DNA of 64,000 nucleotides from an uncultured Candidatus Saccharibacteria bacterium. GTDB lineage: Bacteria > Patescibacteriota > Saccharimonadia > Saccharimonadales > JAGQNJ01. Of the stretch, positions 30,449-41,892 are shown in pieces. Position numbers and translations under genes: made by a program. Below the pieces are notes generated by a model that worked only from the letters and a program-made list of their open reading frames with translations, had not been told where the DNA came from and searched no databases. The stretch is taken from contig CAZOUW010000002.1 in the NCBI GenBank assembly GCA_964583075.1, positions 5,915 to 69,914 on the forward strand, in the 5' to 3' direction. The first letter of the stretch is position 1. The number at the start of each line of letters is the position of its first letter.

Positions 30449-30803
30449 AACAATTTACACTCAGTTTAGCATTATCTTTACGAAAATTAAATGTTAGCGA
30501 CATGAACTATGTTGGGTCAAAACTACAAAATACACTTTTACTTTTTTACACAGCTTATTGTAATGGTCTTGTGGAATAGCTAAATAATATGCACGAAAGA
30601 GCCCGTATCAAAACCCTGAATGATGGCGATGAACACCTAGAGGTAGCGTTGTTTAAGTCAGTGACTCAACGTTTGGCGTTAATTACACTTGTGGGATCGG
30701 ATGAATCAGAAAAAATAGTCGCGAAACGCAATAGGTATTCATCAGATTCAAGAGATAAAAGCCTTAACCAATTTGTAATTCATTATTTAAAATGGAGCAA
30801 AAG

Positions 30804-31754
30804 TTAACACGGACCGTAACTTCCGCTATATTCTTTCCCTAAATCAAGTGTCTTATAAATAGAGCTAAAACCCTGTGGCTTACTATTGCACATTTTAGTC
30901 TTGCCACCCGTATATTCAACATGAAATACTGGCTTTCCTTGACTAATGAAACCACTAACCAGAACATCGCATTCGTCGTACTGCAGACACTCCTCATTTA
31001 CAGCGTATTCCACATAGGGTGAAAGTTTGTTGACCGAACCAGAATCCAACATATTTTTAAGCCCAGCAGCCATCCCTCGCTCGTGAGCCGCAGATGCTAG
31101 ATTAATAACTAACTGTTCAGCCTTGGCTTTGGTAAGCGAAAAACCCGTACCAGAGTATTGATCTACATTGTCAGGTTCAACCCCATCACAGCCTCGTGAT
31201 TTTGCTAAATCAAGCCGTTTTATTATCACTGGCCAATATTCTGGAGCATCCCAGTTTACATACCATTCTCCGTCCCAGTCGGGATACTTATTTCCCCTTA
31301 TACTCAAAGGAAAATTATATTCTCCACTTCGCCAATCTTCGTAGTGAACAGAAAAATAACAAATTATTTTCTTGTTTTTAGACTTCAACGCACTGATATC
31401 ACTATCTTTAGCATCAAATAAATCAATATCAAAAACTTCAGCGTTAACGTTCGTATCTACCGTACCTGTGATTTGCCACTGCCAAGAGATACCAGCAGAC
31501 GGCTTCCAATACGTATCTACAGGCGGTTGAGTGACAGTCCCGAATTGAACATAAGAACCACCAGATGCGCCTGAATCACCACCTTTACGCAAACTTTGCT
31601 GACTAAAAGTTCCTTGTTGTGATTCTGGTTCAATAGAAATGGAGTTTACAGCAGCGCTAGCCAGCAAAGTTGCCCACAAACCGACAAAAGCAATAATAAT
31701 AAGCACTAGACGATATTTCTTAGCCGCCACCATTACTGCTTGAAGTTTAATCAT
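30804..31754 (-). CDS. secreted/membrane-anchored glycoside hydrolase, GH114 (TM1410/PelA-hydrolase-like) family
   Basis: ORF 30804..31832. The likely start is the internal MIKLQ, followed by a signal/TM segment. Motifs DIDLFD, ICYFS, GCDGVEPDNVD and VFHVEY resemble endo-alpha-1,4-polygalactosaminidase/GH114. Confidence 0.6.
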   Translation of the reverse strand: MIKLQAVMVAAKKYRLVLIIIAFVGLWATLLASAAVNSISIEPESQQGTFSQQSLRKGGDSGASGGSYVQFGTVTQPPVDTYWKPSAGISWQWQITGTVDTNVNAEVFDIDLFDAKDSDISALKSKNKKIICYFSVHYEDWRSGEYNFPLSIRGNKYPDWDGEWYVNWDAPEYWPVIIKRLDLAKSRGCDGVEPDNVDQYSGTGFSLTKAKAEQLVINLASAAHERGMAAGLKNMLDSGSVNKLSPYVEYAVNEECLQYDECDVLVSGFISQGKPVFHVEYTGGKTKMCNSKPQGFSSIYKTLDLGKEYSGSYGPC

Positions 31755-31934
31755 ATCAACCGTGATTATGCTTTTATAACAAGCATTGTAACGTAAACCA
31801 TAAAATAATAATACACAGTGAAAACTTAACAATAAAACCCCCTGAAAAGGAGGCCTGTTGTGTTGGTGGACCTAACCGCGCAGCAACTGAAACAGGGACC
31901 CCTAAGGACCCCTGCTGTTTCAAGTAACAACTAT

Positions 31935-32220
31935 TTGGTGCCTCTATACGATGAGGTTAGAACCTATTTTATCTCAAAAAGCTGAAAAGCGAGAACCTAA
32001 GCTCAGCCCTGCTGCCTTGCGGGCAAGTCTGCCCGTTGCGCCCCGCCAGAAAACCGCCTTTGAATTTTTAGATTTTCCCGCCGTTCCTTATTTTTCTAAA
32101 TGAAAAGTCGGTATTTTTGTCGGTTCGCCTGCGCATAGCGCAGAAGTGGCTGGGGCTTGGCTGGTTAATATTACAAGTATGTGCGTTAGATCACTCACAG
32201 TGTTTTTAAGTATTTTTGTT
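31935..32220. repeat. IR1-L: 286-bp inverted repeat, exact reverse-complement of 36194..36479
   Basis: A manual reverse-complement comparison of this stretch (ggtgcctctatacgatgaggttagaacc...cagtgtttttaagtatttttgtt) against IR1-R found no mismatch. Its outer end is ttggtg. Confidence 0.9.
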
Positions 32221-32661
32221 GGCTTTTTTATGCCGTCGGATTTCTATGAACGTAAGTGCCGTAATGACCAGGAAAGACAAAAAAGACATAAAAGGAATAG
32301 TGATAAAACCAAACCAGTTAATCTGCGGTACGGCACAAGAACTATCTATTGAACAAGTTTTAATTGCTTCTTCTATTATGCCCCATTGTAAGAGTGAATG
32401 GTAGAAAGCGATCATCGATCCGACAAGGCTAAGCGGCAACACATAATAGGCCGCATTATTGTCTTTACGGTAAACACCGACACCTAATATAAATGCGAGT
32501 GGAAACATAAATATCCTTTGATACCAACACAAGGCACACGGTACCAAATCCATCACCTCACTAAGCACCATACTGCCTAGTGAAGCCCCGATTGCTACTA
32601 GCCAAGCAATAAAAACCAAATTATTTAAAAACAAAGTATGTATTTGTTTCGTTTTAATCAT
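32206..32661 (-). CDS. disulfide bond formation protein B (DsbB/BdbC family, quinone-dependent thiol oxidase)
   Basis: The internal start MIKTKQIH gives 151 aa. There are 4 TM helices, a CALCWYQR motif in periplasmic loop 1 and a second Cys pair (CSIDSSCAVP). The longer ORF 32206..32718 overlaps the upstream gene. Confidence 0.75.
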   Translation of the reverse strand: MIKTKQIHTLFLNNLVFIAWLVAIGASLGSMVLSEVMDLVPCALCWYQRIFMFPLAFILGVGVYRKDNNAAYYVLPLSLVGSMIAFYHSLLQWGIIEEAIKTCSIDSSCAVPQINWFGFITIPFMSFLSFLVITALTFIEIRRHKKANKNT

Positions 32662-32674
32662 ATATTTTATTCTA

Positions 32675-33847
32675 CTATTGTTTGCAGACTGGACAAACTT
32701 CTTCCTCGACAAACCCATACCGCCAGGTGATTAAAGCCTTCCGCAGTGGAAGAAATGATAGATATAATTTGAAGTCAGCCAACCGTCTTAATAGCCACCC
32801 TAACCGTCCATAGATACGAACCTTCCCCCACAGTACTGCAGCCCAATGCGGACCGACTGGGATAGCATAAATTGGGCGTTTCGGTTTATAACTATATAAG
32901 GTTTGTCTTTTCGATTTTCTAAGCAAGTTTTCTGCAACAAATTTTGCATCGTGAATTGCGGTCTGCGCCATACCAGCGTAGGTAGTCGAGGCACTGTCGC
33001 CAATCACATAGATATTTTGGTTAGCTTGGAGAAATTGATCTACCTCAACTCGACCTGACTTACCTTGCCTAAACAGTTTTCCAGATTGACTAAAAAATGG
33101 GTTATTGACTACTCCCGCTGTCCATATAACGGTATGTGACTTGATCGGTCCTCTAGGTAAGTAAATGCCATCGAGTGTCTCTGATTTAACTGATGCTTCC
33201 AGCTTAGTCTTTACGCCCACCTTTTTAAGCCGATTTAGAACGTCAGTCGAAAAATCTTCTGGCATTGAAGCAAGAACCCTAGGAGCAGCTTCAACTAAAT
33301 TAACCGTAAAAGGGGCTTTTATCTTGTGCTTTTTTCGTATCTTTTTTAGATATGCTACCAGTTCAGCACTGAGTTCCACGCCGGTTGCTCCAGCTCCGAT
33401 CACCACATAATTTCTTTCCGTCTCTGTAGCCAACAACTGTTCATGCATATGGCGTTTTAGCTGTAATGCTTCGTGAACCGTCTTCACACCGTAAGAGAAC
33501 CTCTCAAGCCCCCTGATATTATAAAATTCGGTCACATTACCCAACGCTAGTATCAGCTCCTCATATGTATACTTCGAGCCTGATTCGCCTGAAATAAACT
33601 TTTTTTGTTTGTCGATTGTTGTAACTGTGTCCTCAATTACCTCAACATTTTTTGCATAAGCAAAAAAATCACGCAGCGGTATGGCTACTTCTAGTGGCGA
33701 ACGTCCAGTAGCTGATCGATACAGCGCAGCGTGATACTCAAAATAACTCTGGCTAGAAATCAATTTTACTTCCACTCCTGATTTATTCGACAAGGATAAT
33801 GCAGCTCGTACACCACCAAACCCGCCGCCAACAATAACGACCTTCAT
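32675..33847 (-). CDS. ndh: type II NADH:quinone oxidoreductase (NDH-2) / FAD-dependent pyridine nucleotide-disulfide oxidoreductase
   Basis: 390 aa with two Rossmann GxGxxG motifs (VVIVGGGFGGVRAA; VVIGAGATGVE) and NDH-2-like architecture. Confidence 0.8.
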   Translation of the reverse strand: MKVVIVGGGFGGVRAALSLSNKSGVEVKLISSQSYFEYHAALYRSATGRSPLEVAIPLRDFFAYAKNVEVIEDTVTTIDKQKKFISGESGSKYTYEELILALGNVTEFYNIRGLERFSYGVKTVHEALQLKRHMHEQLLATETERNYVVIGAGATGVELSAELVAYLKKIRKKHKIKAPFTVNLVEAAPRVLASMPEDFSTDVLNRLKKVGVKTKLEASVKSETLDGIYLPRGPIKSHTVIWTAGVVNNPFFSQSGKLFRQGKSGRVEVDQFLQANQNIYVIGDSASTTYAGMAQTAIHDAKFVAENLLRKSKRQTLYSYKPKRPIYAIPVGPHWAAVLWGKVRIYGRLGWLLRRLADFKLYLSFLPLRKALITWRYGFVEEEVCPVCKQ

Positions 33848-35506
33848 TTAAAAACTCTTTCTGATGTGGATTTGCGAAAACTCCAAACTAGCATCGGTTT
33901 TTTTGTGTGGATTAAATATGTTATCAGGATCAAACAGTTTCTTCACAGTTTTGAATATCTGCATCATTTCTGGAGAGTACATATACTCAAGCATCGGACC
34001 ACGTATCATACCGTCGTTATGCTCACCAGATAACGAGCCATTGTATTGTAATACCAAATCCGTAACCTCTTCGAGAGCTGGATATATCTTGTGTCTTTCG
34101 GATTCAACACGTAAATCCATTAGTGGGATGATATGGAAATTTCCATCTCCCATATGCCCAGCAACGGTGTAAAGCAATTTATATCGCTCTAATATTTCGG
34201 TTAAGCGTGGTAAAAATTCAGGTAGCGTTTCCGGAGGTACTATCAAGTCATCAATAAAAGGGGCGGTGTGTTTACGTTTAACGTTTTTTCTAAGCAAGTT
34301 AAAGCTTTCTCGGCGCATTGTCCAAAACTTCTCTTCCTGATGCCTATCTTCGGCCAATTGGGTCTCAATGTTCTTACTCTGCATCATCTGTTGTAACTGA
34401 TGTATCTTTCTGTCTATTTCATTTTGTTCTGTAGCTTCAAACTCGCACAAGAGGATTATTTTTGGAAAACTGGGCAAAAACCGAAGTAAATGTTTTAAAA
34501 CTGGTAAGAAACTTAAGCCAAGTAATATAAACCGCTTCCAACCTAAAGTTTTACGAAAACTAAAGAAAAACCTGAAAGCAAACTTGAGTGTATGGTCGTC
34601 AAACGACTCCAAACTTGTTGGCCTCATTGGCAATATATCGTTAATTATTTCACCGAGTCCATCGAGATTTTTTAGAAAAATCACTACCATCCCCGAGAGT
34701 GGCTTAGCCGGAACAAGCCGAAAAGTAGCTTCAGTTATTAGACCCAGTGTACCCTGAGAGCCAACGATGATCTTTGTCATGTCAAACGCTTCTCCGTCCC
34801 AAACATCCCAAATATTGTAAGCAGTTGAGTTTTTGCTGACCTTGGGCTTTGATGCCTTAATTATTTCTTGATTTTCCGTGACCAATTTATAAATCCCACG
34901 GTATAAATCGCCTTCTAAACCAGTCTCGTTTAACTTTTGTTTCAATGTTTTTTTATCAATAGCTTGAAATGTATGCTCTTTGCCGTCTCTCAGCACAATC
35001 TTGACCTGTTTTACATACCGATCTGTTTTGCCATATATCAGAGATTTTTCACCGCCAGCATTGTTTGCCACCATACCACCGATCATACATAAATCTTTTG
35101 ATGCGGGATATGATGGCATTATTAACCCCTGCTCCAATGTCTTGGGTTCAAAATCACGATAGTAAACGCCAGGCTGTACGGTAACTTCATTATCTTTGAT
35201 TTGCCCAACCTGTGTAAAGTAGCGCCCATATGCCACGATAATAGACTCGTTAATAGCTCCGCCGGACATATCTGTACCGCCGCTGCGACCAGTCAGTGAA
35301 AGATCAGGGTGCGATAGTTTATTCTTAGACACATGTTCTACTAGGTTGCAAATGTCTGTTACGTCTCGTGGATAAGCTATTGCTTCAGGTTTAATCTCAA
35401 ACAAACTGGCGTCGTGGCTATATAAACCACGCGCATGTCTATCTACTTCTATATTGCCCTTGAAAAATCTTTTGATGTCCTCGTGGAGGTGGGTAAATTT
35501 ACCCAT
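33848..35506 (-). CDS. FAD-linked oxidase (FAD_binding_4 + FAD-oxidase C-terminal domains; GlcD/D-lactate dehydrogenase-like)
   Basis: 552 aa with TGRSGGTDMSGGA in the PCMH-type FAD-binding domain and a C-terminal FAD-oxidase domain. Confidence 0.7.
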   Translation of the reverse strand: MGKFTHLHEDIKRFFKGNIEVDRHARGLYSHDASLFEIKPEAIAYPRDVTDICNLVEHVSKNKLSHPDLSLTGRSGGTDMSGGAINESIIVAYGRYFTQVGQIKDNEVTVQPGVYYRDFEPKTLEQGLIMPSYPASKDLCMIGGMVANNAGGEKSLIYGKTDRYVKQVKIVLRDGKEHTFQAIDKKTLKQKLNETGLEGDLYRGIYKLVTENQEIIKASKPKVSKNSTAYNIWDVWDGEAFDMTKIIVGSQGTLGLITEATFRLVPAKPLSGMVVIFLKNLDGLGEIINDILPMRPTSLESFDDHTLKFAFRFFFSFRKTLGWKRFILLGLSFLPVLKHLLRFLPSFPKIILLCEFEATEQNEIDRKIHQLQQMMQSKNIETQLAEDRHQEEKFWTMRRESFNLLRKNVKRKHTAPFIDDLIVPPETLPEFLPRLTEILERYKLLYTVAGHMGDGNFHIIPLMDLRVESERHKIYPALEEVTDLVLQYNGSLSGEHNDGMIRGPMLEYMYSPEMMQIFKTVKKLFDPDNIFNPHKKTDASLEFSQIHIRKSF

Positions 35507-35516
35507 TGATTACCTC

Positions 35517-36056
35517 CTATTCGAGTATTGGAAATCGTTTGACCAAAGACTGTTTAACCCACCAGCTCCGCAAACCCCAAACCTGTCTGTCATTTGCAGC
35601 TAACAAGCCCAGTAAGACCACGGAGTAAATGACGTGATCGTCTATAATCGGGTTATTTTCAGGTAATATCATTGCCGACCACATCATCATAAACAGCAAT
35701 ACCCCTGAGATTGTTGCTATTCTCATACCGATACCGGCTATTAGTGCAAACCCAATAAGCAAAAGTCCTGCCATAAACAGTACATCAACAAAGGTATTGC
35801 CAGCTAAGCCCTGATAGAAATCAGCAAATGGTCCCTTAGTAGCAAATTCTAAGAATCCAGTGGTTGGTGAACCACCGTTTATCCAAGCTTTTTCACATAA
35901 CATAGTTACAGTATTAGTTTCGGCATCTCGACAGGTAGCGAAGCCTAGGCCAAGCAGCTTATCGAAAAATGCCCACAACAGCGTGAATCCGAGTAAAATA
36001 CGAGCCATTGCCCAGAAGTATGGTGATTTATCATTTGTTGAATTTTGTTTTGCCAT
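35517..36056 (-). CDS. DoxX-family membrane protein (quinone-interacting, TQO small-subunit-like)
   Basis: 179 aa with about 4 TM helices. RILLGFTLLWAFFDKLLG is a DoxX-like N-terminus. Confidence 0.6.
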   Translation of the reverse strand: MAKQNSTNDKSPYFWAMARILLGFTLLWAFFDKLLGLGFATCRDAETNTVTMLCEKAWINGGSPTTGFLEFATKGPFADFYQGLAGNTFVDVLFMAGLLLIGFALIAGIGMRIATISGVLLFMMMWSAMILPENNPIIDDHVIYSVVLLGLLAANDRQVWGLRSWWVKQSLVKRFPILE

Positions 36057-36193
36057 ATTAATCCTTGCTTAACGTTAACGCTTATCTATAGTAAGTATAG
36101 CTTCAGAAGCTTTTATATTCAAGATTCAAGTGCTGGGCAGAGCCATTAATAACCACTTACTTTATAGCGCTAACTCTGACTGTTAGAGTGCTT

Positions 36194-36479
36194 AACAAAA
36201 ATACTTAAAAACACTGTGAGTGATCTAACGCACATACTTGTAATATTAACCAGCCAAGCCCCAGCCACTTCTGCGCTATGCGCAGGCGAACCGACAAAAA
36301 TACCGACTTTTCATTTAGAAAAATAAGGAACGGCGGGAAAATCTAAAAATTCAAAGGCGGTTTTCTGGCGGGGCGCAACGGGCAGACTTGCCCGCAAGGC
36401 AGCAGGGCTGAGCTTAGGTTCTCGCTTTTCAGCTTTTTGAGATAAAATAGGTTCTAACCTCATCGTATAGAGGCACCAA
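36194..36479. repeat. IR1-R: 286-bp inverted repeat, partner of 31935..32220
   Basis: Perfect reverse-complement match to IR1-L. Its outer end ...gaggcaccaag fuses directly to IR2-L. Confidence 0.9.
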
Positions 36480-36610
36480 GAAAGTACTAAAATCGGAATT
36501 GCGGCGCAAATGCGCCGTTTTTTCTTTGGTTGCGCGAAGCGCCAACCAAGGATTTTTCAGAGGGGGAGAAATATTTGGGGCGGCCGCTGGCTGCGCCTTC
36601 TTGGATTTTA
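36474..36610. repeat. IR2-L: inverted copy of tRNA-Leu 3'-flank, its terminator, and the recombinase 3' end (partner 38155..38295)
   Basis: Sequence caccaagaaagtactaaaatcggaattgcggcgcaaatgcgccgttttttctttggttgcgcgaagcgccaaccaaggatttttcagagggggagaaatatttggggcggccgctgg is the reverse-complement of 38155..38295 with about 3-4 mismatches at the distal end. It includes an orphan hairpin+T7 terminator at 36503-36524 on the plus strand. It encodes a 75-aa minus-strand ORF (36429..36656) that mirrors the recombinase C-terminus. Confidence 0.85.
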
Positions 36611-36643
36611 GACCGCCATTGGTGGTTTTTGCTATACTGGAGT

Positions 36644-36726
36644 TGGACACAATCAAAGCGGAATAGCTATTTTAATTGGCTCAGATAGCCGTCTCGTACA
36701 ATTTGGTTATTCCGGATTGTGTCCAG
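36644..36726. promoter_or_regulatory. 12-bp inverted repeat pair (ttggacacaatc ... gattgtgtccag) upstream of the recombinase gene; candidate operator/recombinase binding site
   Basis: 11/12 match, separated by 59 bp, ending about 30 bp before the recombinase ATG. The palindrome aatagctatt also lies between them. Confidence 0.3.
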
Positions 36727-36757
36727 CGAGGCGGCTATTTGAGTTCAAGGGGGTGTT

Positions 36758-38503
36758 ATGAGTAAGTGGTACACTTATGCTAGAAAATCAACAGACGTTG
36801 AAGATAAACAAGTTTTATCCATTGAAGCACAATTGGTTGAACTCCGGGAGTTTGCCAAGCGAGAGGGTTTAGATATAGCCGCCGAGTTTGTCGAGAAACA
36901 ATCCGCTAAAAGTCCAGGTCGTCCGGTTTTTGGCAAATTACTGACTGAAATTGAAAAATCTGGCGGTAATATACTCGCTTGGCATCCAGACAGGCTTGCC
37001 CGCAATTCCATTGACGGCGGACAGATTGTCTACTTACTGGACAGTGGCAAGCTGGACAACCTGAAGTTCCCGTCATTTTGGTTTGAAAATACTTCTCAAG
37101 GCAAATTTATGCTGAGTATTGCTTTTGGTCAAAGCAAATACTATGTAGACAATCTGTCCGAGAACACCAAGCGTGGACTTCGCCAAAAAGTCCGAATGGG
37201 ACTTTATCCGGGCTGTGCGCCCGTTGGATATATAAATGATGTCCGCAGTAAAAGCATTGTCATAGACAAACGGCTTGCGCCGGTTGTTGTTTCCGCTTTT
37301 GAGCTGTATGCCAAAGGCGAGAGCCGGCTGGAAGATATTGCAGTTTTTCTTAAAAGCAAAGGCGTTGCCACCAAAAGCGGCAAACAACTAAGCAAAGACC
37401 AGATCAAACGGATATTGACCAATCCGTTTTACTACGGACACTTCAAATTCTTAGGCGAAGTCCACGAGGGCAAGCATAAACCAATTGTGCCTAAAAAACT
37501 GTTTGACCAAGTACAAACAGTTTTAAGCCGTAGAGGGCGACCACAAAAAGGAAAAACCACCCCGCAAATCTTTTGCGGTTTGCTGGCCTGCGCTTCTTGC
37601 GGATTATCCGTAACTGGCGAGCACAAAATAAAACGTCAGAAAAATGGCAATATCCATGAGTATATTTATTATAGGTGCACCAAAAAGCGCAAAGATTTCA
37701 AATGCTTAGAACCTGCTGTTACCCAAAGTGATTTAACAGAGCAATTATCTAGCTTATTGACTGAATATGCCATGCCAAAGGCATGGGCCAGCAAACTTGA
37801 AGCTATGCTTCAAGAAGATGAAAAGGAAGTCAACCAAACTGTTTCAGTGTTTGTAGCTAACGCCCAAACACGACTTGTTAGTTTGCAAGGTAAACTCCAG
37901 CGACTTTTAGATGGTTATTTAGACCAAGACATTGAGCAAAGTGTTTATCGAGCTAAACAAGCTGGGTTGATGTCCGAGAAAAAGTCGCTGGAAGAGCAAG
38001 TCAGCAAACTCACGCTTGCCGGAAGCAGTTGGATAGAACCTATGCGCCAATGGATAAAACAGGCTGTTTCAAACGGTGAAACAGCCAAAAAAGCCGAGCC
38101 AAGTGCCATAAAGGAAGCACTAACTAAAATGGAAGGATTGAACCTATTTCTAAAATCCAAAAAGGCACGGCCAGCGGCCGCCCCAAATATTTCTCCCCCT
38201 CTGAAAAATCCTTGGTTGGCGCTTCGCGCAACCAAAGAAAAAACGGCGCATTTGCGCCGCAATTCCGATTTTAGTACTTTCTTGGTGGGCGAGAAAGGAC
38301 TTGAACCTTCACGCCTTGCGGCACTAGTTCCTAAGACTAGCGTGTCTACCAATTCCACCACTCGCCCACGATACCAAATTGTTAAATACCGATGTATTTT
38401 ACCCTATGCGACGGTAAAATACCAGTGTCGAATCGCCATACTCTTTCTTTGTCCTCAAATTAAAACCCTCGCCAAGATTCACTTCGACATCTGGTGGAAG
38501 TGA
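36758..38503 (+). CDS. large serine recombinase (resolvase catalytic domain + recombinase domain + zinc ribbon); 3' ~350 nt of ORF reads through att-like repeat and antisense tRNA-Leu
   Basis: 581-aa ORF. The N-terminus YARKSTDVEDKQ...LAWHPDRLARN carries the serine-recombinase catalytic Ser and Arg motifs. Recombinase-domain and Cys4 zinc-ribbon motifs (CGLLACASCG...YYRC) follow. The C-terminal part after about aa 465 overlaps IR2-R and tRNA-Leu and is probably not native coding sequence. Confidence 0.8.
   Translation: MSKWYTYARKSTDVEDKQVLSIEAQLVELREFAKREGLDIAAEFVEKQSAKSPGRPVFGKLLTEIEKSGGNILAWHPDRLARNSIDGGQIVYLLDSGKLDNLKFPSFWFENTSQGKFMLSIAFGQSKYYVDNLSENTKRGLRQKVRMGLYPGCAPVGYINDVRSKSIVIDKRLAPVVVSAFELYAKGESRLEDIAVFLKSKGVATKSGKQLSKDQIKRILTNPFYYGHFKFLGEVHEGKHKPIVPKKLFDQVQTVLSRRGRPQKGKTTPQIFCGLLACASCGLSVTGEHKIKRQKNGNIHEYIYYRCTKKRKDFKCLEPAVTQSDLTEQLSSLLTEYAMPKAWASKLEAMLQEDEKEVNQTVSVFVANAQTRLVSLQGKLQRLLDGYLDQDIEQSVYRAKQAGLMSEKKSLEEQVSKLTLAGSSWIEPMRQWIKQAVSNGETAKKAEPSAIKEALTKMEGLNLFLKSKKARPAAAPNISPPLKNPWLALRATKEKTAHLRRNSDFSTFLVGEKGLEPSRLAALVPKTSVSTNSTTRPRYQIVKYRCILPYATVKYQCRIAILFLCPQIKTLAKIHFDIWWK
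38155..38295. repeat. IR2-R: partner of 36474..36610; spans recombinase 3' end, tRNA-Leu terminator and tRNA-Leu 3' terminus
   Basis: Near-identical inverted copy. Its outer end ...gtactttcttggtg corresponds to the complement of the tRNA CACCA 3' end. Confidence 0.85.
38236..38258 (-). terminator. Rho-independent terminator downstream of tRNA-Leu
   Basis: Hairpin ggcgcaaatgcgcc followed by TTTTTT on the minus strand, about 25 nt after the tRNA 3' end. Confidence 0.55.
38283..38367 (-). tRNA. tRNA-Leu (anticodon TAG), 85 nt including encoded CCA
   Basis: Manual fold: acceptor GGGCGAG/CTCGCCC, U8, 3-bp D-stem GTG/CAC with GAATTGGTAGA loop, anticodon stem CTAGT/ACTAG with loop CTTAGGA (anticodon TAG), a long 13-nt variable arm, and T-arm GAAGG-TTCAAGT-CCTTT, followed by ACCA. 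Confidence 0.85.
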
Positions 38504-38932
38504 TATAACCACCATACCCCCTAGTTTGGTACATTGTGATACTTTCTGTACCCGGGTAATGCTTACATCGTCATACGGCGGGTCACACACAACAATATCA
38601 AAGTATTTGTCGGGGTTATTATCTATCCAAGAAGTTATGTTCGCTCGAGTTACCTTCAATGACGCGTCCAGATTTTTAGAATTTGTGCTGATTACCTCAG
38701 AAGCCTTCTTGTCTGAATCTATTGCAACCACGCCCACAGCTCCCCGACTAATTGCTTCAAGGGCAATCGCACCACTTCCACTATAAGCATCTAGCAGGGT
38801 CAGGCCAGATATATCACCCAGTATATTAAAGATCGCTCCACGCATCTTTTCGCTCATTGGGTGAGTTTTATGCCCACTTGGAGAGTCAAAAGTTCTGCCA
38901 CCTAACCTGCCAGCAATAACCCTCAATCTCAC
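38399..38932 (-). CDS. rsmD: 16S rRNA (guanine966-N2)-methyltransferase RsmD
   Basis: 177 aa with a SAM-binding motif LDAYSGSGAIALEA and the DPPY catalytic motif. Confidence 0.8.
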   Translation of the reverse strand: MRLRVIAGRLGGRTFDSPSGHKTHPMSEKMRGAIFNILGDISGLTLLDAYSGSGAIALEAISRGAVGVVAIDSDKKASEVISTNSKNLDASLKVTRANITSWIDNNPDKYFDIVVCDPPYDDVSITRVQKVSQCTKLGGMVVISLPPDVEVNLGEGFNLRTKKEYGDSTLVFYRRIG

Positions 38933-39756
38933 TCCTCGATCTCCGGAGTAATCAACTTTGCCTCGACTAATGCCAGATACCAGATTAATGCCACCGTACG
39001 CGCAATCGTCGGCGCAAGCTTGCTACGTACATCGACTATTAGCTTCGTAGACCAACCACGCTTCCTAAAGCGTTCGTACATATCAAGAACGGCAATTTCG
39101 CGAGCTGTGCGACGAAACAGCTCTAGCGGACCAACATCGAGTGCTGTAGCGATCTCGTGGTCTTTGGGTGCAGCCATACTCATACCGAGTGGCGCGATTA
39201 TTGTTGCAATTCCAATCTCAAATAAACCGTGCGTCGACATTAAACCTTTTGGTCCATAAACCTTCCAACTCCGCTTTATTGTTTCACGTTTCGTGGCACC
39301 TTGCGGAATAACTTTCTTACGGAAGGTTGTACGCGTTTCTTTAGCCTCTCCACGTATTTCGCTTAACTTTTCTTCGTAAGGATAGTGATGAGCGGGTGTC
39401 AGCCCATCAACGATAGCGTGCGCCAACCATGCAGCCTCAAAAGCAATGCGCTCTTGGTTATTTTTCTTTAATTCCTTTACTAACTGATTATAGTGATCAT
39501 GGATCAAGTCAATGAGCTCTGAGTCATTATTATCAAATGGACTGTAATAATGCCAGGGCTCATCTTTGGCCGGACTCTTGCGCTTAATTGCGTCAGGTCC
39601 CTTCCTACCTTCAAAATGTAAGATTTTTTTAGCGGACGGGAAAAGCTCTTTTTTTGGCAAAAGTTTCGCCAGTTGCTTACGAGCAACTCTGTCTAGTTTC
39701 TGGTGTGCACCGAGAATGCGGCCAGACATAGGTGTCAATGTTGTTCCAGAATACAT
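38929..39756 (-). CDS. hypothetical protein (His-rich motifs; possible zinc-dependent hydrolase/phospholipase-C-like fold)
   Basis: 275-aa ORF. AWLAHAIVDGLTPAHHYPYEE contains clustered His/Asp. No confident family assignment was possible. Confidence 0.4.
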   Translation of the reverse strand: MYSGTTLTPMSGRILGAHQKLDRVARKQLAKLLPKKELFPSAKKILHFEGRKGPDAIKRKSPAKDEPWHYYSPFDNNDSELIDLIHDHYNQLVKELKKNNQERIAFEAAWLAHAIVDGLTPAHHYPYEEKLSEIRGEAKETRTTFRKKVIPQGATKRETIKRSWKVYGPKGLMSTHGLFEIGIATIIAPLGMSMAAPKDHEIATALDVGPLELFRRTAREIAVLDMYERFRKRGWSTKLIVDVRSKLAPTIARTVALIWYLALVEAKLITPEIEE

Positions 39757-39858
39757 AAATACTACGAGACAAACCTGTAGGTTTTCTCATTAGGCCGTGC
39801 AAAAAAATCTGACTTTTTACTTAGGCCAATCTCTTCCCTTATTTGAAAAATATTCATG

Positions 39859-41892
39859 TTAGTTTAGGTGAACCACGGATTGTAGTTCTATTATTCGCTT
39901 CTTAATATACGGGTATTGTACCAGATTCTGCTCCTTGCGCATGAACTCTTTTACAGCATTGCGAGCTCGTGCAATAAGTTTTGTGTCTGAAAAATTAGCT
40001 ATTCTTAAATCCAACTGTCCATGCTGCATCATGCCGTAGAGCGCTCCTGCACCCCGTATGTCTAAATCTAGCTGAGCAAGCTTGAAGCCGTCAGTAGTTG
40101 ATTCAATTGCGCGTAACCTCCTTGAAGGTGCGCGTGAGTCGCTCAACATTAAATAACAATACCCTCGTGTTTTTCCCCGACCAACCCGGCCCCGCAGTTG
40201 ATGAAGTTGTGCTAAACCAAAACGCTCAGGCGCTTCAATAATCATTATCGTTGCATTTGGAACATCTACGCCTACTTCAATAACTGTGGTTGCCACCAAA
40301 ATGTCAATGTCTCCATTGACAACTTTTTGCATGATCGTCTGTTTGTCTTCTGTCTTCATCTTTCCGTGCAATATCCCAACCTTAAACTCCTTGAAGTGTT
40401 TTTTCATTTCAATATATGTCGCTTGAGCAGATTTTGCCTCGACTGCATTTGATTCTTCAATCAGAGGACAAACAACAAAAGCCTGACGACCATTTTTTAG
40501 CTCCTCTTCAACACGTTCATATAGTTTAAGCTGATCCGTAGGCTTCACTAAAGCAGTTATTATTGGCAATCTGTCCTTTGGCTTTTGATTCAAGATTGAA
40601 ATATCAAGCTCACCAAAGACAGTCAGCGCAAGACTACGCGGAATCGGTGTTGCAGTCATACTAAGCATATGGGGCACGTGTCCAGACTTGGCCAGTAGCT
40701 TTTTGCGTTGCTCAACGCCAAAACGATGCTGCTCATCAATAACCACGAGCGCTAATTTGCTTAGGTTAACTTTTTCCTGAATCAATGTATGTGTGCCAAC
40801 TATAAACTGGGCTTGACCGTTGCTAATGAAATCATGAGCTCTTTTTTTGTCTTGTGCGCTCATACTGCCAACCAAAAGTATGGTTTTCTCTGCAAAACCC
40901 AAGGGTGTCACTAGATTATAGATTGTCTCTGCATGCTGTCGAGCTAGTAGCTCGGTTGGTGCCATAAAAGCGACCTGATAGCCCTCTGCTAAAGCCATGA
41001 CTGCTCCCATTGCCGCCACAACGGTCTTACCGGCACCAACGTCACCTTCTAGCAGCCTATTCATAACCTTACCTGAGTCCATATCTTGATAGATCTGCCA
41101 AACAGCACGTTTTTGAGCATCGGTGAGCATGAATGGTAGGTGTTTTATGAAAGCTTTGGCATAGTCCTGCTTGAAGGCCACTTTTATACTAGGCTGATCT
41201 GCGATGTCCCGCTTGGAGTGCTGTGCAGCTAGAATAAGTTCAAATAACTCCTCAAACCCTAAGCGTTGATCCGCCAACTTTACATCATTAATGGTGTCGG
41301 GGAAGTGCTTCTTTTTAATTGCATCCTTGCGCGCTATTAGCTGCTCGTCTTTTAGCACATAATCAGGTAATGTCTCTGGTATATAGGTTGCGCTCGTTAT
41401 GACCTCCCTGACAATTTTTCTAATTTGCCTGGACGATAGTCCTTTGGTCTCACGATATACCGGTACTATCCGTGCAGCATTTATTGGAAACGTCGATTCA
41501 AGTTCGATTGACGGGTTAGTAATTGATAACTTGCCGTATCTCAGCTCAAACAAGCCAGAAACAAAATATGACTCGTGCTTTTGTATGCTTGCCGCACGAT
41601 ATGGCTGATTAAACCAAACTAATCGTACACTGCCAGTAGCATCGCTGGCGATGGCCTCAGTAATATGAAGACCGCCCCGTACATATTTCCCAGACGCCTG
41701 CTTAATTTCAGCCTTGATGCTAACGTTACCTGGCTTGATACGGCCTATACTGAGCAGATTGGAGTAGTCTTCATATCGACGCGGATAGTACTCAAGTAAA
41801 TCCTTAACGTTTCTTAGTCCAAGTCTTGCTAATATCGCAGCCGTACTAGGCCCAACTCCACGAACATCACGTAACGATGTATCCAATTGCAT
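39859..41892 (-). CDS. recG: ATP-dependent DNA helicase RecG
   Basis: 677 aa with a wedge domain and SF2 helicase motifs (GDVGAGKTVVA, DEQHRFGV, helicase C). Confidence 0.9.
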   Translation of the reverse strand: MQLDTSLRDVRGVGPSTAAILARLGLRNVKDLLEYYPRRYEDYSNLLSIGRIKPGNVSIKAEIKQASGKYVRGGLHITEAIASDATGSVRLVWFNQPYRAASIQKHESYFVSGLFELRYGKLSITNPSIELESTFPINAARIVPVYRETKGLSSRQIRKIVREVITSATYIPETLPDYVLKDEQLIARKDAIKKKHFPDTINDVKLADQRLGFEELFELILAAQHSKRDIADQPSIKVAFKQDYAKAFIKHLPFMLTDAQKRAVWQIYQDMDSGKVMNRLLEGDVGAGKTVVAAMGAVMALAEGYQVAFMAPTELLARQHAETIYNLVTPLGFAEKTILLVGSMSAQDKKRAHDFISNGQAQFIVGTHTLIQEKVNLSKLALVVIDEQHRFGVEQRKKLLAKSGHVPHMLSMTATPIPRSLALTVFGELDISILNQKPKDRLPIITALVKPTDQLKLYERVEEELKNGRQAFVVCPLIEESNAVEAKSAQATYIEMKKHFKEFKVGILHGKMKTEDKQTIMQKVVNGDIDILVATTVIEVGVDVPNATIMIIEAPERFGLAQLHQLRGRVGRGKTRGYCYLMLSDSRAPSRRLRAIESTTDGFKLAQLDLDIRGAGALYGMMQHGQLDLRIANFSDTKLIARARNAVKEFMRKEQNLVQYPYIKKRIIELQSVVHLN

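Follow-up and report, generated by a model that had tools for sequence, protein, structure and literature searches.

The DNA analysed is a window of 64,000 nucleotides (nt) from the contig CAZOUW010000002.1 (assembly GCA_964583075.1) of an uncultured Candidatus Saccharibacteria bacterium, and all window coordinates refer to it. At the 3' end of its tRNA-Leu(TAG) gene lies a putative integrative element (31935–38287), which consists of a four-gene cargo segment and a recombinase segment that holds only a leader and the recombinase gene; each segment is flanked by its own pair of inverted repeats (Table 1). The recombinase open reading frame (ORF) at 36758–38503 matches the Pfam domains Resolvase (PF00239, E = 2.7e-20), Recombinase (PF07508, E = 4.8e-17) and Zn_ribbon_recom (PF13408, E = 8.7e-07), in this order, and is therefore a large serine recombinase (LSR). 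Additionally, the C-terminal domain of the A118 integrase (4KIS) matches the protein with E = 7e-11, and its N-terminal YxRKSTD motif is invariant across 23 homologs. The top NCBIfam match is CcrB, at 127.8 bits (E = 5e-37) against a cut-off of 900 bits, which places the protein, as far as profile scores can tell, on a branch related to CcrB and not among the CcrB equivalogs. No second ORF with a Resolvase domain, as expected of a CcrA or DsiA partner, is present in 31935–38287. An earlier inspection of the letters without database searches (the sequence-only reading) had proposed a large serine recombinase whose 3' end runs antisense across tRNA-Leu(TAG), and had named the same three Pfam profiles; the gene, its position and the three matches bear this out.

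A repeat finder run on 30500–40000 of the window (9.5 kb) reported two long inverted repeats. IR1 spans 286 nt with 100% complementarity, and IR2 spans 139 nt at 98%, with three mismatches that all lie at the inner end, 119–127 nt away from the core described below. Since the third-ranked inverted repeat of the region reaches merely 32 nt at 72%, both stand far above chance; since the IR2 arms differ at three positions, they are two distinct, genuine copies. The IR1 and IR2 arms overlap by the 6 nt CACCAA, and the same hexamer, read as TTGGTG, forms the first bases of IR1-L and the last bases of IR2-R. The repeat finder thus recovers what the sequence-only reading had described, namely two nested inverted-repeat pairs with a shared core, and a CACCAAG-plus-flank copy inverted at 36474, fused to the end of a 286-bp repeat whose mate ends in ttggtg at 31935. 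Written in the TTGGTG orientation, site 1 (31935) reads ...aacaactat-TTGGTG-cctctatacga, site 2 (the reverse complement of 36474) reads ...tagtactttc-TTGGTG-cctctatacga, and site 3 (38282) reads ...tagtactttc-TTGGTG-ggcgagaaagg. The three sites can be written as X-core-B, A-core-B and A-core-tRNA, where X is the left chromosomal flank, and this comparison supports the shared core as the crossover region, as had been suggested. We read site 1 as attL, site 2 as an intact attP and site 3 as attR. Site 2 is inverted relative to sites 1 and 3 and sits between cargo and recombinase, giving the order attL, cargo, inverted intact attP, recombinase, attR. At 31935 there is no fragment of a tRNA, and only 5–6 nt are shared.

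Table 1 Features of the element and its flanks (window coordinates).
Feature	Position	Strand	Remarks
Chromosomal flank X	31833–31934		adjoins GH114 gene
IR1-L (B arm)	31935–32220	+	core, recombinase tail codons, structured non-coding part
Core of site 1 (putative attL), TTGGTG	31935–31940	+	joins flank X to B arm; three-site comparison
B-arm outer stem	32005–32016 with 32148–32157		
B-arm hairpin	32019–32035		
B-arm long hairpin	from about 32043		loop motif TTTTCCCGCCG at 32073–32083; covariation in family
B-arm hairpin	32129–32143		
DsbB	32206–32718	-	Pfam/NCBIfam
Cargo segment, 3973 nt, four genes	32221–36193	-	Pfam and NCBIfam
Pyr_redox_2 / NDH-2-like oxidoreductase	32675–33847	-	Pfam/NCBIfam
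FAD-linked oxidase	33848–35506	-	Pfam/NCBIfam
DoxX-like membrane protein	35517–36056	-	no family match
Promoter-like site of cargo	36122–36094	-	promoter scan
IR1-R (B' arm)	36194–36479	-	identical inverted B-arm copy; right half of site 2
Core of site 2 (putative attP), CACCAA	36474–36479	-	minus strand reads A-TTGGTG-B, predicted intact inverted attP
IR2-L (A' arm)	36474–36612	-	inverted copy of last 46 recombinase codons
Promoter-like -35/-10, TAGACC-18-TATACT	36609–36638	+	
Recombinase promoter and structured leader	36613–36757	+	promoter scan, covariation
Leader hairpin and T-run	36613–36630	+	
Leader helix P1, 10 bp	36645–36654 with 36715–36724		98.8% paired, 8/10 pairs compensatory
Leader helix P2	36659–36665 with 36708–36714		
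Leader helix P3, 15 bp	36680–36696 with 36727–36743		99.2% paired, 5 compensatory pairs
Recombinase ribosome-binding site	36747–36753	+	
Large serine recombinase, integrated form, 581 aa	36758–38503	+	Pfam domains; antisense through tRNA-Leu
IR2-R (A arm)	38149–38287	+	3' coding end of recombinase
Core of site 3 (putative attR), TTGGTG	38282–38287	+	TGGTG is the complement of the tRNA terminal CACCA
tRNA-Leu(TAG), target	38283–38367	-	ARAGORN; Rfam tRNA 58 bits; left intact, perfect acceptor stem

All three junctions recur in independent public assemblies (L-numbers denote the related loci or contigs compared, P-numbers the recombinase homolog proteins). The attL junction, from the GH114 flank over the core into B, was assembled independently in L011–L013 and L121; the junction from B' over the core and A' into the recombinase is reproduced in L001/L016 and L018, and that from the recombinase over A and the core into the tRNA in L001, L002 and L017, while L018 joins recombinase-A-core to tRNA-Val(TAC) instead of tRNA-Leu. 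L001/L016 and L018 traverse IR1-R and end at its inner edge, L122 ends exactly at the core, and contig ends in the independent assemblies fall at repeat boundaries or at k-mer distances into repeats. As every junction is recovered in this way, collapse or chimerism of one assembly, an artefact that the sequence-only reading had considered, is excluded. Contig breaks inside the tRNA (L003–L008) were at one time taken for heterogeneity; this was dropped, since tRNA sequence common among community members fits them better.

The attP core lies inside the recombinase ORF, with codon 510 ending at 38287. Residues 1–510 are native, and residues 511–581 are encoded by antisense tRNA-Leu and the adjoining methyltransferase gene's 3' end, the chromosomal form reading through the antisense tRNA for 71 further codons. 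Where the gene continues into an attP, its product ends in ...STFLV-PLYDEVRTYFISKS*; the 14 final codons and the stop lie at 31941–31985. Because the crossover falls inside the ORF, integration swaps a conserved 14-aa tail for antisense-tRNA sequence. This alternative C-terminus had been predicted from the letters, and it corresponds to the native tail of the family, (F/L)Y(D/N)xx(A/V)RT(Y/H)F. Specifically, 18 of the 121 homolog cluster representatives end in (F/L/I)Y(N/D)xx(A/V)RT(Y/H)Fxxx(C/S/A/V), 85 end in antisense-tRNA peptides (G-L/I/F-E-P...), and the remainder are truncated or end otherwise. The tail codons vary synonymously among relatives (AGA/CGA, ACC/ACT, TTT/TTC, several Leu and Phe codons), which points to selection acting on both the peptide and the DNA site that overlaps it, and suggests that the full-length recombinase matters in some state, either on a circle or beside a tandem neighbour. 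The full-length protein would be encoded only on the circle or beside the B arm of a neighbouring element. A separately translated C-terminal peptide from the minus-strand ORF 36429–36656 was considered and rejected: read by eye, this ORF can start only at a TTG, and the antisense ATG/GTG conserved in the leader hairpin is in another frame.

Homologs of the recombinase are numerous. Among 8000 candidates scored in a protein search, 7936 reached E <= 1e-20; the closest are 65–80% identical, and the named ones belong to Saccharibacteria. A scan of species-representative genomes with an alignment of the 23 homologs, over pattern-matching stretches, found 554 relatives, and 78 loci were analysed, their layout being determined by self-comparison and tRNA calling and then by exact boundary extension. 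IR2 (about 125–150 nt) flanks the recombinase in 49 of the 55 loci with at least 450 nt upstream, and IR1 (100–360 nt) flanks a cargo of 0.9–8 kb in 30 of the 39 loci that have 4 kb or more upstream (31 when L050, whose repeat is split, is included); the loci with this full layout are spread over about 15 different tRNA species. The reciprocal hybrids X-core-B, A-core-B and A-core-tRNA occur in the window and in 32 other loci with cores of 3–10 nt, and the overlap of IR1 and IR2 among relatives is always 3–10 nt. Across the family the repeat arms measure 130–360 nt and are usually 99–100% identical to their partner over the full length, and the recombinase faces the tRNA in all of about 60 integrated loci. 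An all-against-all BLASTP of 135 ORFs from 33 cargo segments returned almost only singletons and no second conserved gene, hence no candidate directionality factor and no replication gene; the CcrB-like LSR thus appears to be the family's single conserved gene. IMG/VR, INPHARED (GenBank phages) and the PLSDB plasmids hold no relative above 30% identity.

The occurrence of this layout in 30–31 of 39 loci at many tRNAs, and in the tRNA-Val copy, indicates that the repeats are no scars of inversions; judged from these comparisons, the nested repeats are most simply a built-in feature of the whole element family and no local accident. The suggestion that one or two inversions after integration had produced them in this genome is accordingly not supported. 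With a probability of about 0.62, we take 31935–38287 to be one integrated copy from a family of integrative elements that are small and non-viral and occur in Saccharibacteria and other Patescibacteria.

The target of the window copy is the tRNA 3' end. The encoded end ...GCCCACCA of tRNA-Leu abuts the core, and the encoded CACCA lies in it; the attL/attR logic and the domains of the protein support integration at the CCA end by a large serine recombinase, as the sequence-only reading had it. Within the family, the targets include tRNAs for Leu (five anticodons), Arg (four), Gln, Gly, Val, Ile, Lys, Met, Asn, Ser and Thr; in every case the tRNA lies antisense to the 3' end of the recombinase gene. 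When the att sites were aligned on the TGG complementary to CCA, a GAACC box of the tRNA T arm was read from the listed sequences at +20 from the CCA complement; an automated tally, whose pattern matches GAATC too, split the tRNAs between +15 and +20. The B arm carries GAACC at +24 in 38 of 45 elements (31960–31964 in the window copy), within the consensus TGGTg.a.TT.TACaAC...GCTcGAACCTATTTT. The B arm thus seems to mimic the T-arm box, 4 bp farther from the core. In structural models of LSR directionality, based on the LI/A118 integrase, a half-site motif lies a few bp farther out in attP than in attB, the offset in the LI model being ~5 bp. By analogy, the zinc-ribbon domain may read the T-arm box, and such recognition would explain why many tRNAs serve as targets. 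Core positions +3/+4 match the discriminator base and base 72 of each lineage's tRNA (TGGTG, TGGTA, TGGCT, TGGCG, TGGAG), so the crossover dinucleotide probably includes +3. Nothing is conserved in the left flank X except T-richness, and the A arm is conserved, yet it is no mirror image of B; no dyad symmetry between the A and B half-sites is evident in the family alignment. An unconserved X would likewise explain why many tRNAs and the junctions of resident elements serve as targets, and if X is arbitrary, an A-core-tRNA junction should also work as a target. Competence of attR as a target would fit the tandem arrays described below. At the inner edge of IR2-R (38131–38147), the codons for G-L-N-L-F read GGATTGAACCTATTT, which resembles the GAACC box; TTGAACC near this edge is kept in the few relatives that were read by eye and may be a coding coincidence or a third box.

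Mobility is shown, at the level of assembled sequence, by L018, a 7.1-kb contig from another metagenome, which carries window positions 36194–38287 at 99.8% identity, joined at TTGGTG to tRNA-Val(TAC). The module lies there in a different gene neighbourhood with the same layout as in the window, constituting a second insertion. Sites without an island were found in related species (70–80% nt identity), which have this tRNA-Leu and the genes flanking it in common with the window: HisRS lies about 570 nt from tRNA-Leu in L102, and in L100 the tRNA is followed by its own terminator. For the same species, the exact predicted attB 26-mer had 0 matches in JGI metagenome contigs, and a search with a tRNA-Leu 37-mer recovered only related species. 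L009 (960–1041; ERZ27258482 k141_1373213), which corresponds to about 38282–38300 of the window, has the same methyltransferase gene and tRNA-Leu. Its tRNA 3' acceptor strand reads CATCCCC, with two mismatches to the 5' strand, and an unrelated hairpin with a T-run follows CACCAA in the 67 nt available; it may hold another family member with a deeper crossover.

Further contigs show the element in other configurations. L108 (4705 nt) and L120 (3186 nt) run from a partial A' through leader, recombinase, A, core, B and cargo to a partial B', with both contig ends inside the second inverted copy. Because a circle with inverted repeats would assemble in this way, we infer two free circles, one of about 4.84 kb and one of about 3.39 kb. 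Tandem arrays are frequent: in L035, L109 (1367–10339), L118 and L119, two different family members stand in a row at a single tRNA, and the upstream recombinase reads past the core into its neighbour's B arm, thereby regaining a native-type tail. The cargo of the second element in L109 comprises an N6/N4 methyltransferase and a helicase, with a restriction- or defence-like look. In the hunt for flipped segments, seven native-tail cases were traced (P0006, P0090, P0051, P0046, P0097, P0102 and the locus L096): four are tandem or tandem-like (L109, L118, L119, L096), two are circle-like (L108, L120) and one is ambiguous (L117); in none does a tRNA lie directly upstream.

The internal site also appears to have recombined. 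In L082 (9689–11604), a recombinase module has a tRNA on both sides, with the 3' ends inward, and in L040 (9624–9700) and L083 (4934–5009) a tRNA 3' end replaces B' upstream, the contigs stopping at the downstream junction. The three loci imply that a second tRNA site has recombined with the internal attP, which is thus live; a chromosomal inversion between tRNA genes is the simplest route. In L045 (5247–7060), a unit of CACCAA, a 33-nt hairpin and TTGGTG occurs twice in inverted orientation, so that one cargo module stands between inverted copies of a single chromosomal-type flank, an unusual pair of flanks that would match the recombinase modules above. In L093 (9500–10000), the end of an insertion-sequence transposase gene replaces site 2 while site 1 and the tRNA junction are kept, and this locus is a natural derivative with a single attP, probably immobilised.

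A model of the element's cycle can be put together as follows. The free form would be a circle in which cargo and recombinase segments are separated by two inverted A-core-B copies. For the window copy, excision between sites 1 and 3 would release a circle of about 6.35 kb with two inverted 431-nt attP regions (139 + 6 + 286 nt), the 3973-nt cargo and a 1536-nt recombinase segment. Recombination of one attP copy with a tRNA 3' end would give X-core-B, cargo, B'-core'-A', recombinase and A-core-tRNA; the core would be the complement of the tRNA NCCA end, and the tRNA half-site would comprise acceptor and T arm, with GAACC 20 nt from the CCA complement and the same box at 24 nt in the B arm. The truncated integrated protein would be weak or inactive, locking the element in place. 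Site 2 (A-core-B) and site 3 (A-core-tRNA) would then form a pair of attP x attB type in inverted orientation, if pairing is set by the right-hand half-sites (B versus the tRNA arm). Since A stands on the left of both, the products would again be A-core-B and A-core-tRNA, and the flip would be reversible. With the recombinase segment flipped, the gene would again run into the intact tail at site 2 and encode the full-length enzyme, which would keep flipping the segment or excise the element; the truncated enzyme would act slowly. The long-lived state would thus be the one that faces the tRNA, which fits all integrated copies being in it. Active inversion of the recombinase segment, raised in the sequence-only reading, is plausible, with no flipped copy among the about 60 integrated loci; as none was found, the recombinase switch is a prediction and not a finding. 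That the inverted attP enables a reversible flip is a tentative proposal, with the odds somewhat against it. We hold as rather doubtful the wider idea of a one-protein, self-regulating switch between locked and mobile states, which would work without a directionality factor and occasionally invert chromosome segments between tRNA genes.

Several observations weigh against the integrative element as we read it, or against its proposed cycle. For this species, no tRNA-Leu site free of the element was found, and no flipped recombinase, with the tRNA directly upstream and a native tail, occurs in any locus or contig examined. The 524-aa full-length form of the window recombinase is absent from a collection of 15 billion proteins, in which its cluster has only integrated forms of 581 and 522 aa, and conservation of the tail could be partly due to the overlapping DNA half-site. 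L108 and L120 are also compatible with identical copies in tandem or with flipped integrated copies, which an assembly graph does not distinguish from circles, and integration into attL would produce tandem arrays with the same final order equally well. Nothing in the model accounts for the ~100% identity of the two copies over 130–360 nt, beyond what an LSR site needs.

Alternatively, the second attP may serve the circle alone, after excision and much as in the 2-micron plasmid, allowing isomerisation or integration via either copy, and be a passenger in the chromosome. The circle-like contigs with two inverted copies would suit such a role, as would the fact that no flipped recombinase was observed. 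So would the cargo orientation relative to the recombinase, which is divided roughly half and half over the loci and differs between the relatives L027 and L034, whose 630 common nt (87.6% identity) are inverted. Integration by either copy, however, predicts that half of the recombinases point away from the tRNA, and none does, barring a later corrective flip; typical LSRs do not recombine attP x attP, and the family has no conserved replication gene on which 2-micron-like copy-number amplification could be based. We regard this explanation as unlikely. The excess length of the arms, 130–360 nt at usually 99–100% identity and far beyond an LSR site, would suit the idea that the hairpin-rich repeats act on single-stranded nucleic acid. 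B with B' and A' with A would pair, and B'-core'-A' would splint the ends into a duplex attP, enabling circularisation or recombination without a second strand on single-stranded DNA from natural transformation or replication. Both arms are indeed dense in covarying hairpins, even within coding sequence, and Saccharibacteria have been reported to be naturally competent. Serine recombinases, on the other hand, act on duplex DNA by concerted double-strand cleavage, the idea has no direct evidence, and the hairpins have simpler roles as tRNA terminator, recombinase insulation and mRNA structure, so that we think it improbable.

Two independent, adjacent transposon-like modules, that is, an insertion-sequence-like recombinase with 139-nt terminal inverted repeats and a passenger cassette with 286-nt ones, could also give the nested pattern. 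The solo recombinase module between two tRNAs without cargo (L082), the tRNA in place of B' (L040, L083) and the cargo modules with unusual flanks (L045) would agree with this. Serine recombinases are unable to excise a segment between inverted sites, though, and solo modules are the expected product of an internal attP acting on a second tRNA site; the outer junctions follow attL/attR logic with one attP, and the pair of modules is conserved as a unit. Two separate modules are thus a very improbable source of the pattern. Finally, a short common core in inverted orientation would be compatible with a simple tRNA island followed by one or two recombinase inversions in this genome, or with an assembly artefact. 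This is barely credible: 139 or 286 nt cannot be duplicated by a site-specific inversion, dozens of unrelated genomes show this architecture at different tRNAs, as does the tRNA-Val copy, and the junctions were recovered by several assemblers and samples, with the IR2 copies differing at 3 positions.

Integrative cassettes driven by an LSR are known already, and the family has several unusual properties. A literature search of incomplete coverage gave no description of these elements in Patescibacteria nor of an internal inverted attP. The nearest published system that we found is the ssrA islands of Dehalococcoides, which lack a reported inverted attP. These carry a CcrB-like serine recombinase, DsiB, of about 540 aa in a six-gene integration module that includes a second, small serine recombinase, DsiA; they insert within the T-loop of ssrA, with a direct repeat of 20 bp, inverted repeats are nowhere mentioned, and DsiB was proposed to be complete only on the circle or beside a neighbouring island (McMurdie et al. 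2011, PMC3146451). The family described here shares with them a CcrB-like LSR, a tRNA-like 3' end as target, variable cargo without replication genes, tandem islands, and a recombinase ORF that extends, on the other strand, across the 3' end of the target and has a context-dependent stop codon. It differs by its single conserved gene, its many tRNA targets, its 3–10 nt core at the CCA end and its internal inverted attP copy.

Other systems resemble the family in part. Staphylococcal cassette chromosome elements (SCC/SCCmec), mobilised by CcrAB or CcrC, are small cassettes that do not replicate; they carry variable cargo, insert at the conserved gene rlmH (orfX), at its 3' end, and are not known to have an internal inverted attachment site. 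The best profile of the window recombinase is likewise CcrB, and the elements are likewise cargo-variable cassettes at the 3' end of a conserved gene, but the score is 128 bits versus the 900-bit CcrB cut-off, a CcrA partner is absent and the target is a tRNA. Phage LSRs (A118/LI, Bxb1, phiC31) share the domain set, the A118 C-terminal homology, short att sites with a small core, and an attP half-site motif farther from the centre than in attB (by 4 bp here). Unlike them, the family is not carried on phages, has no candidate directionality factor, leaves one attB half-site unconserved, places attP inside the recombinase ORF and has a second attP. Hin, a small serine invertase that needs an enhancer and Fis, and the 2-micron plasmid, a replicating plasmid with the tyrosine recombinase Flp and two unique regions split by site-bearing inverted repeats, resemble the family in geometry only. 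As in Hin, whose gene lies inside the segment bounded by inverted sites, the recombinase gene sits within inverted repeats that carry its own sites. The protein is at least 510 aa long with LSR domains, however, and not a small invertase of the Hin/Gin type with a C-terminal helix-turn-helix; the recombinase segment has a single orientation in all integrated loci, and only the cargo is inverted, once, between relatives. The 2-micron arrangement of two unique regions and inverted repeats on a circle would be matched by L108 and L120, which could also be tandem or flipped copies, but our elements have a serine recombinase, no conserved replication gene and no evident replication origin. In SSV1-type archaeal integrases, which are tyrosine recombinases, attP lies inside the integrase gene, which is split or changed on integration; tyrosine-integrase islands of the Islander type land at tRNA 3' ends and restore the tRNA. 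Both have direct repeats of tens of bp, which in the tRNA islands copy a tRNA 3' fragment of roughly 15 bp or more. The family agrees with the former in an attP within the recombinase gene and with the latter in a restored tRNA 3' end, and differs from both in its serine recombinase and in sharing only the NCCA end (5–6 nt), with no long direct repeat.

Both the arms and the leader are structured. The A arm forms three hairpins inside coding sequence. They are 85% paired, as against 74.5% in shuffles, none of which (0 of 500) attains the 85%; with a slid partner, pairing is about 38%. In its helix h2, which covers the codons W-x-L-L-R-K, 13 of 33 sequences are double-compensatory at each of two pairs, so that amino acids covary while the stem is preserved; this apparently indicates selection on nucleic-acid structure inside the recombinase ORF. 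A scan predicted intrinsic terminators at 36501–36518 (+) and 38260–38243 (-), both facing into the recombinase segment, and a T-run comes after the last A-arm hairpin when the opposite strand is read. The predicted terminator at 38260–38243, directly downstream of the tRNA, would end tRNA transcription, and that at 36501–36518 would shield the recombinase gene against upstream transcription. In the leader, none of 500 shuffles reached the observed pairing values. P3 crosses P1/P2, forming a pseudoknot or alternative folds just upstream of the ribosome-binding site; G-U pairs place the fold on the recombinase sense strand, and the structure recurs at the same position in the relatives L019–L073. 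The leader may act in autoregulation. Beyond its coding part, the B arm (31986–32220 / 36194–36428) has a conserved multi-hairpin fold, in which the loop motif of the long hairpin is nearly invariant in the family as TTTCCCCCGCCGA, the window variant being TTTTCCCGCCG. An Rfam scan gave the tRNA as sole match and none for the leader, A-arm and B-arm structures, and the recombinase leader and the B arm are two conserved structured elements new to Rfam.

Patescibacteria (the candidate phyla radiation) have tiny genomes with few mobile elements described. With 554 relatives, 7936 matching proteins in metagenomes and a different cargo in almost every copy, the family appears to be a major vehicle of gene exchange among them. 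It would offer a natural LSR that reads a universal tRNA feature, the CCA end plus T-arm box, while tolerating an arbitrary second half-site. An attP inside its own gene and the lack of a visible directionality factor make directionality without an accessory protein testable, and from a live internal attP one would expect the element to drive inversions between tRNA genes, with consequences for how genomes of these lineages are rearranged. If the switch and the T-arm mimicry are true, these recombinases would form a new class of tRNA-end-targeting serine integrases whose reversibility is set by site architecture.

The cargo of the window copy is a four-gene redox cassette, and one contig (L125) corresponds exactly to its unique segment. 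The sole contig informative on the orientation of this cargo, L121, has it as in the window, so that heterogeneity was not seen in this single case. Outside the element, a GH114 glycoside hydrolase gene (30804–31832) lies between HisRS and the island; it is missing from the syntenic region of L102 and L099 and may mark an older variable region at the same tRNA.

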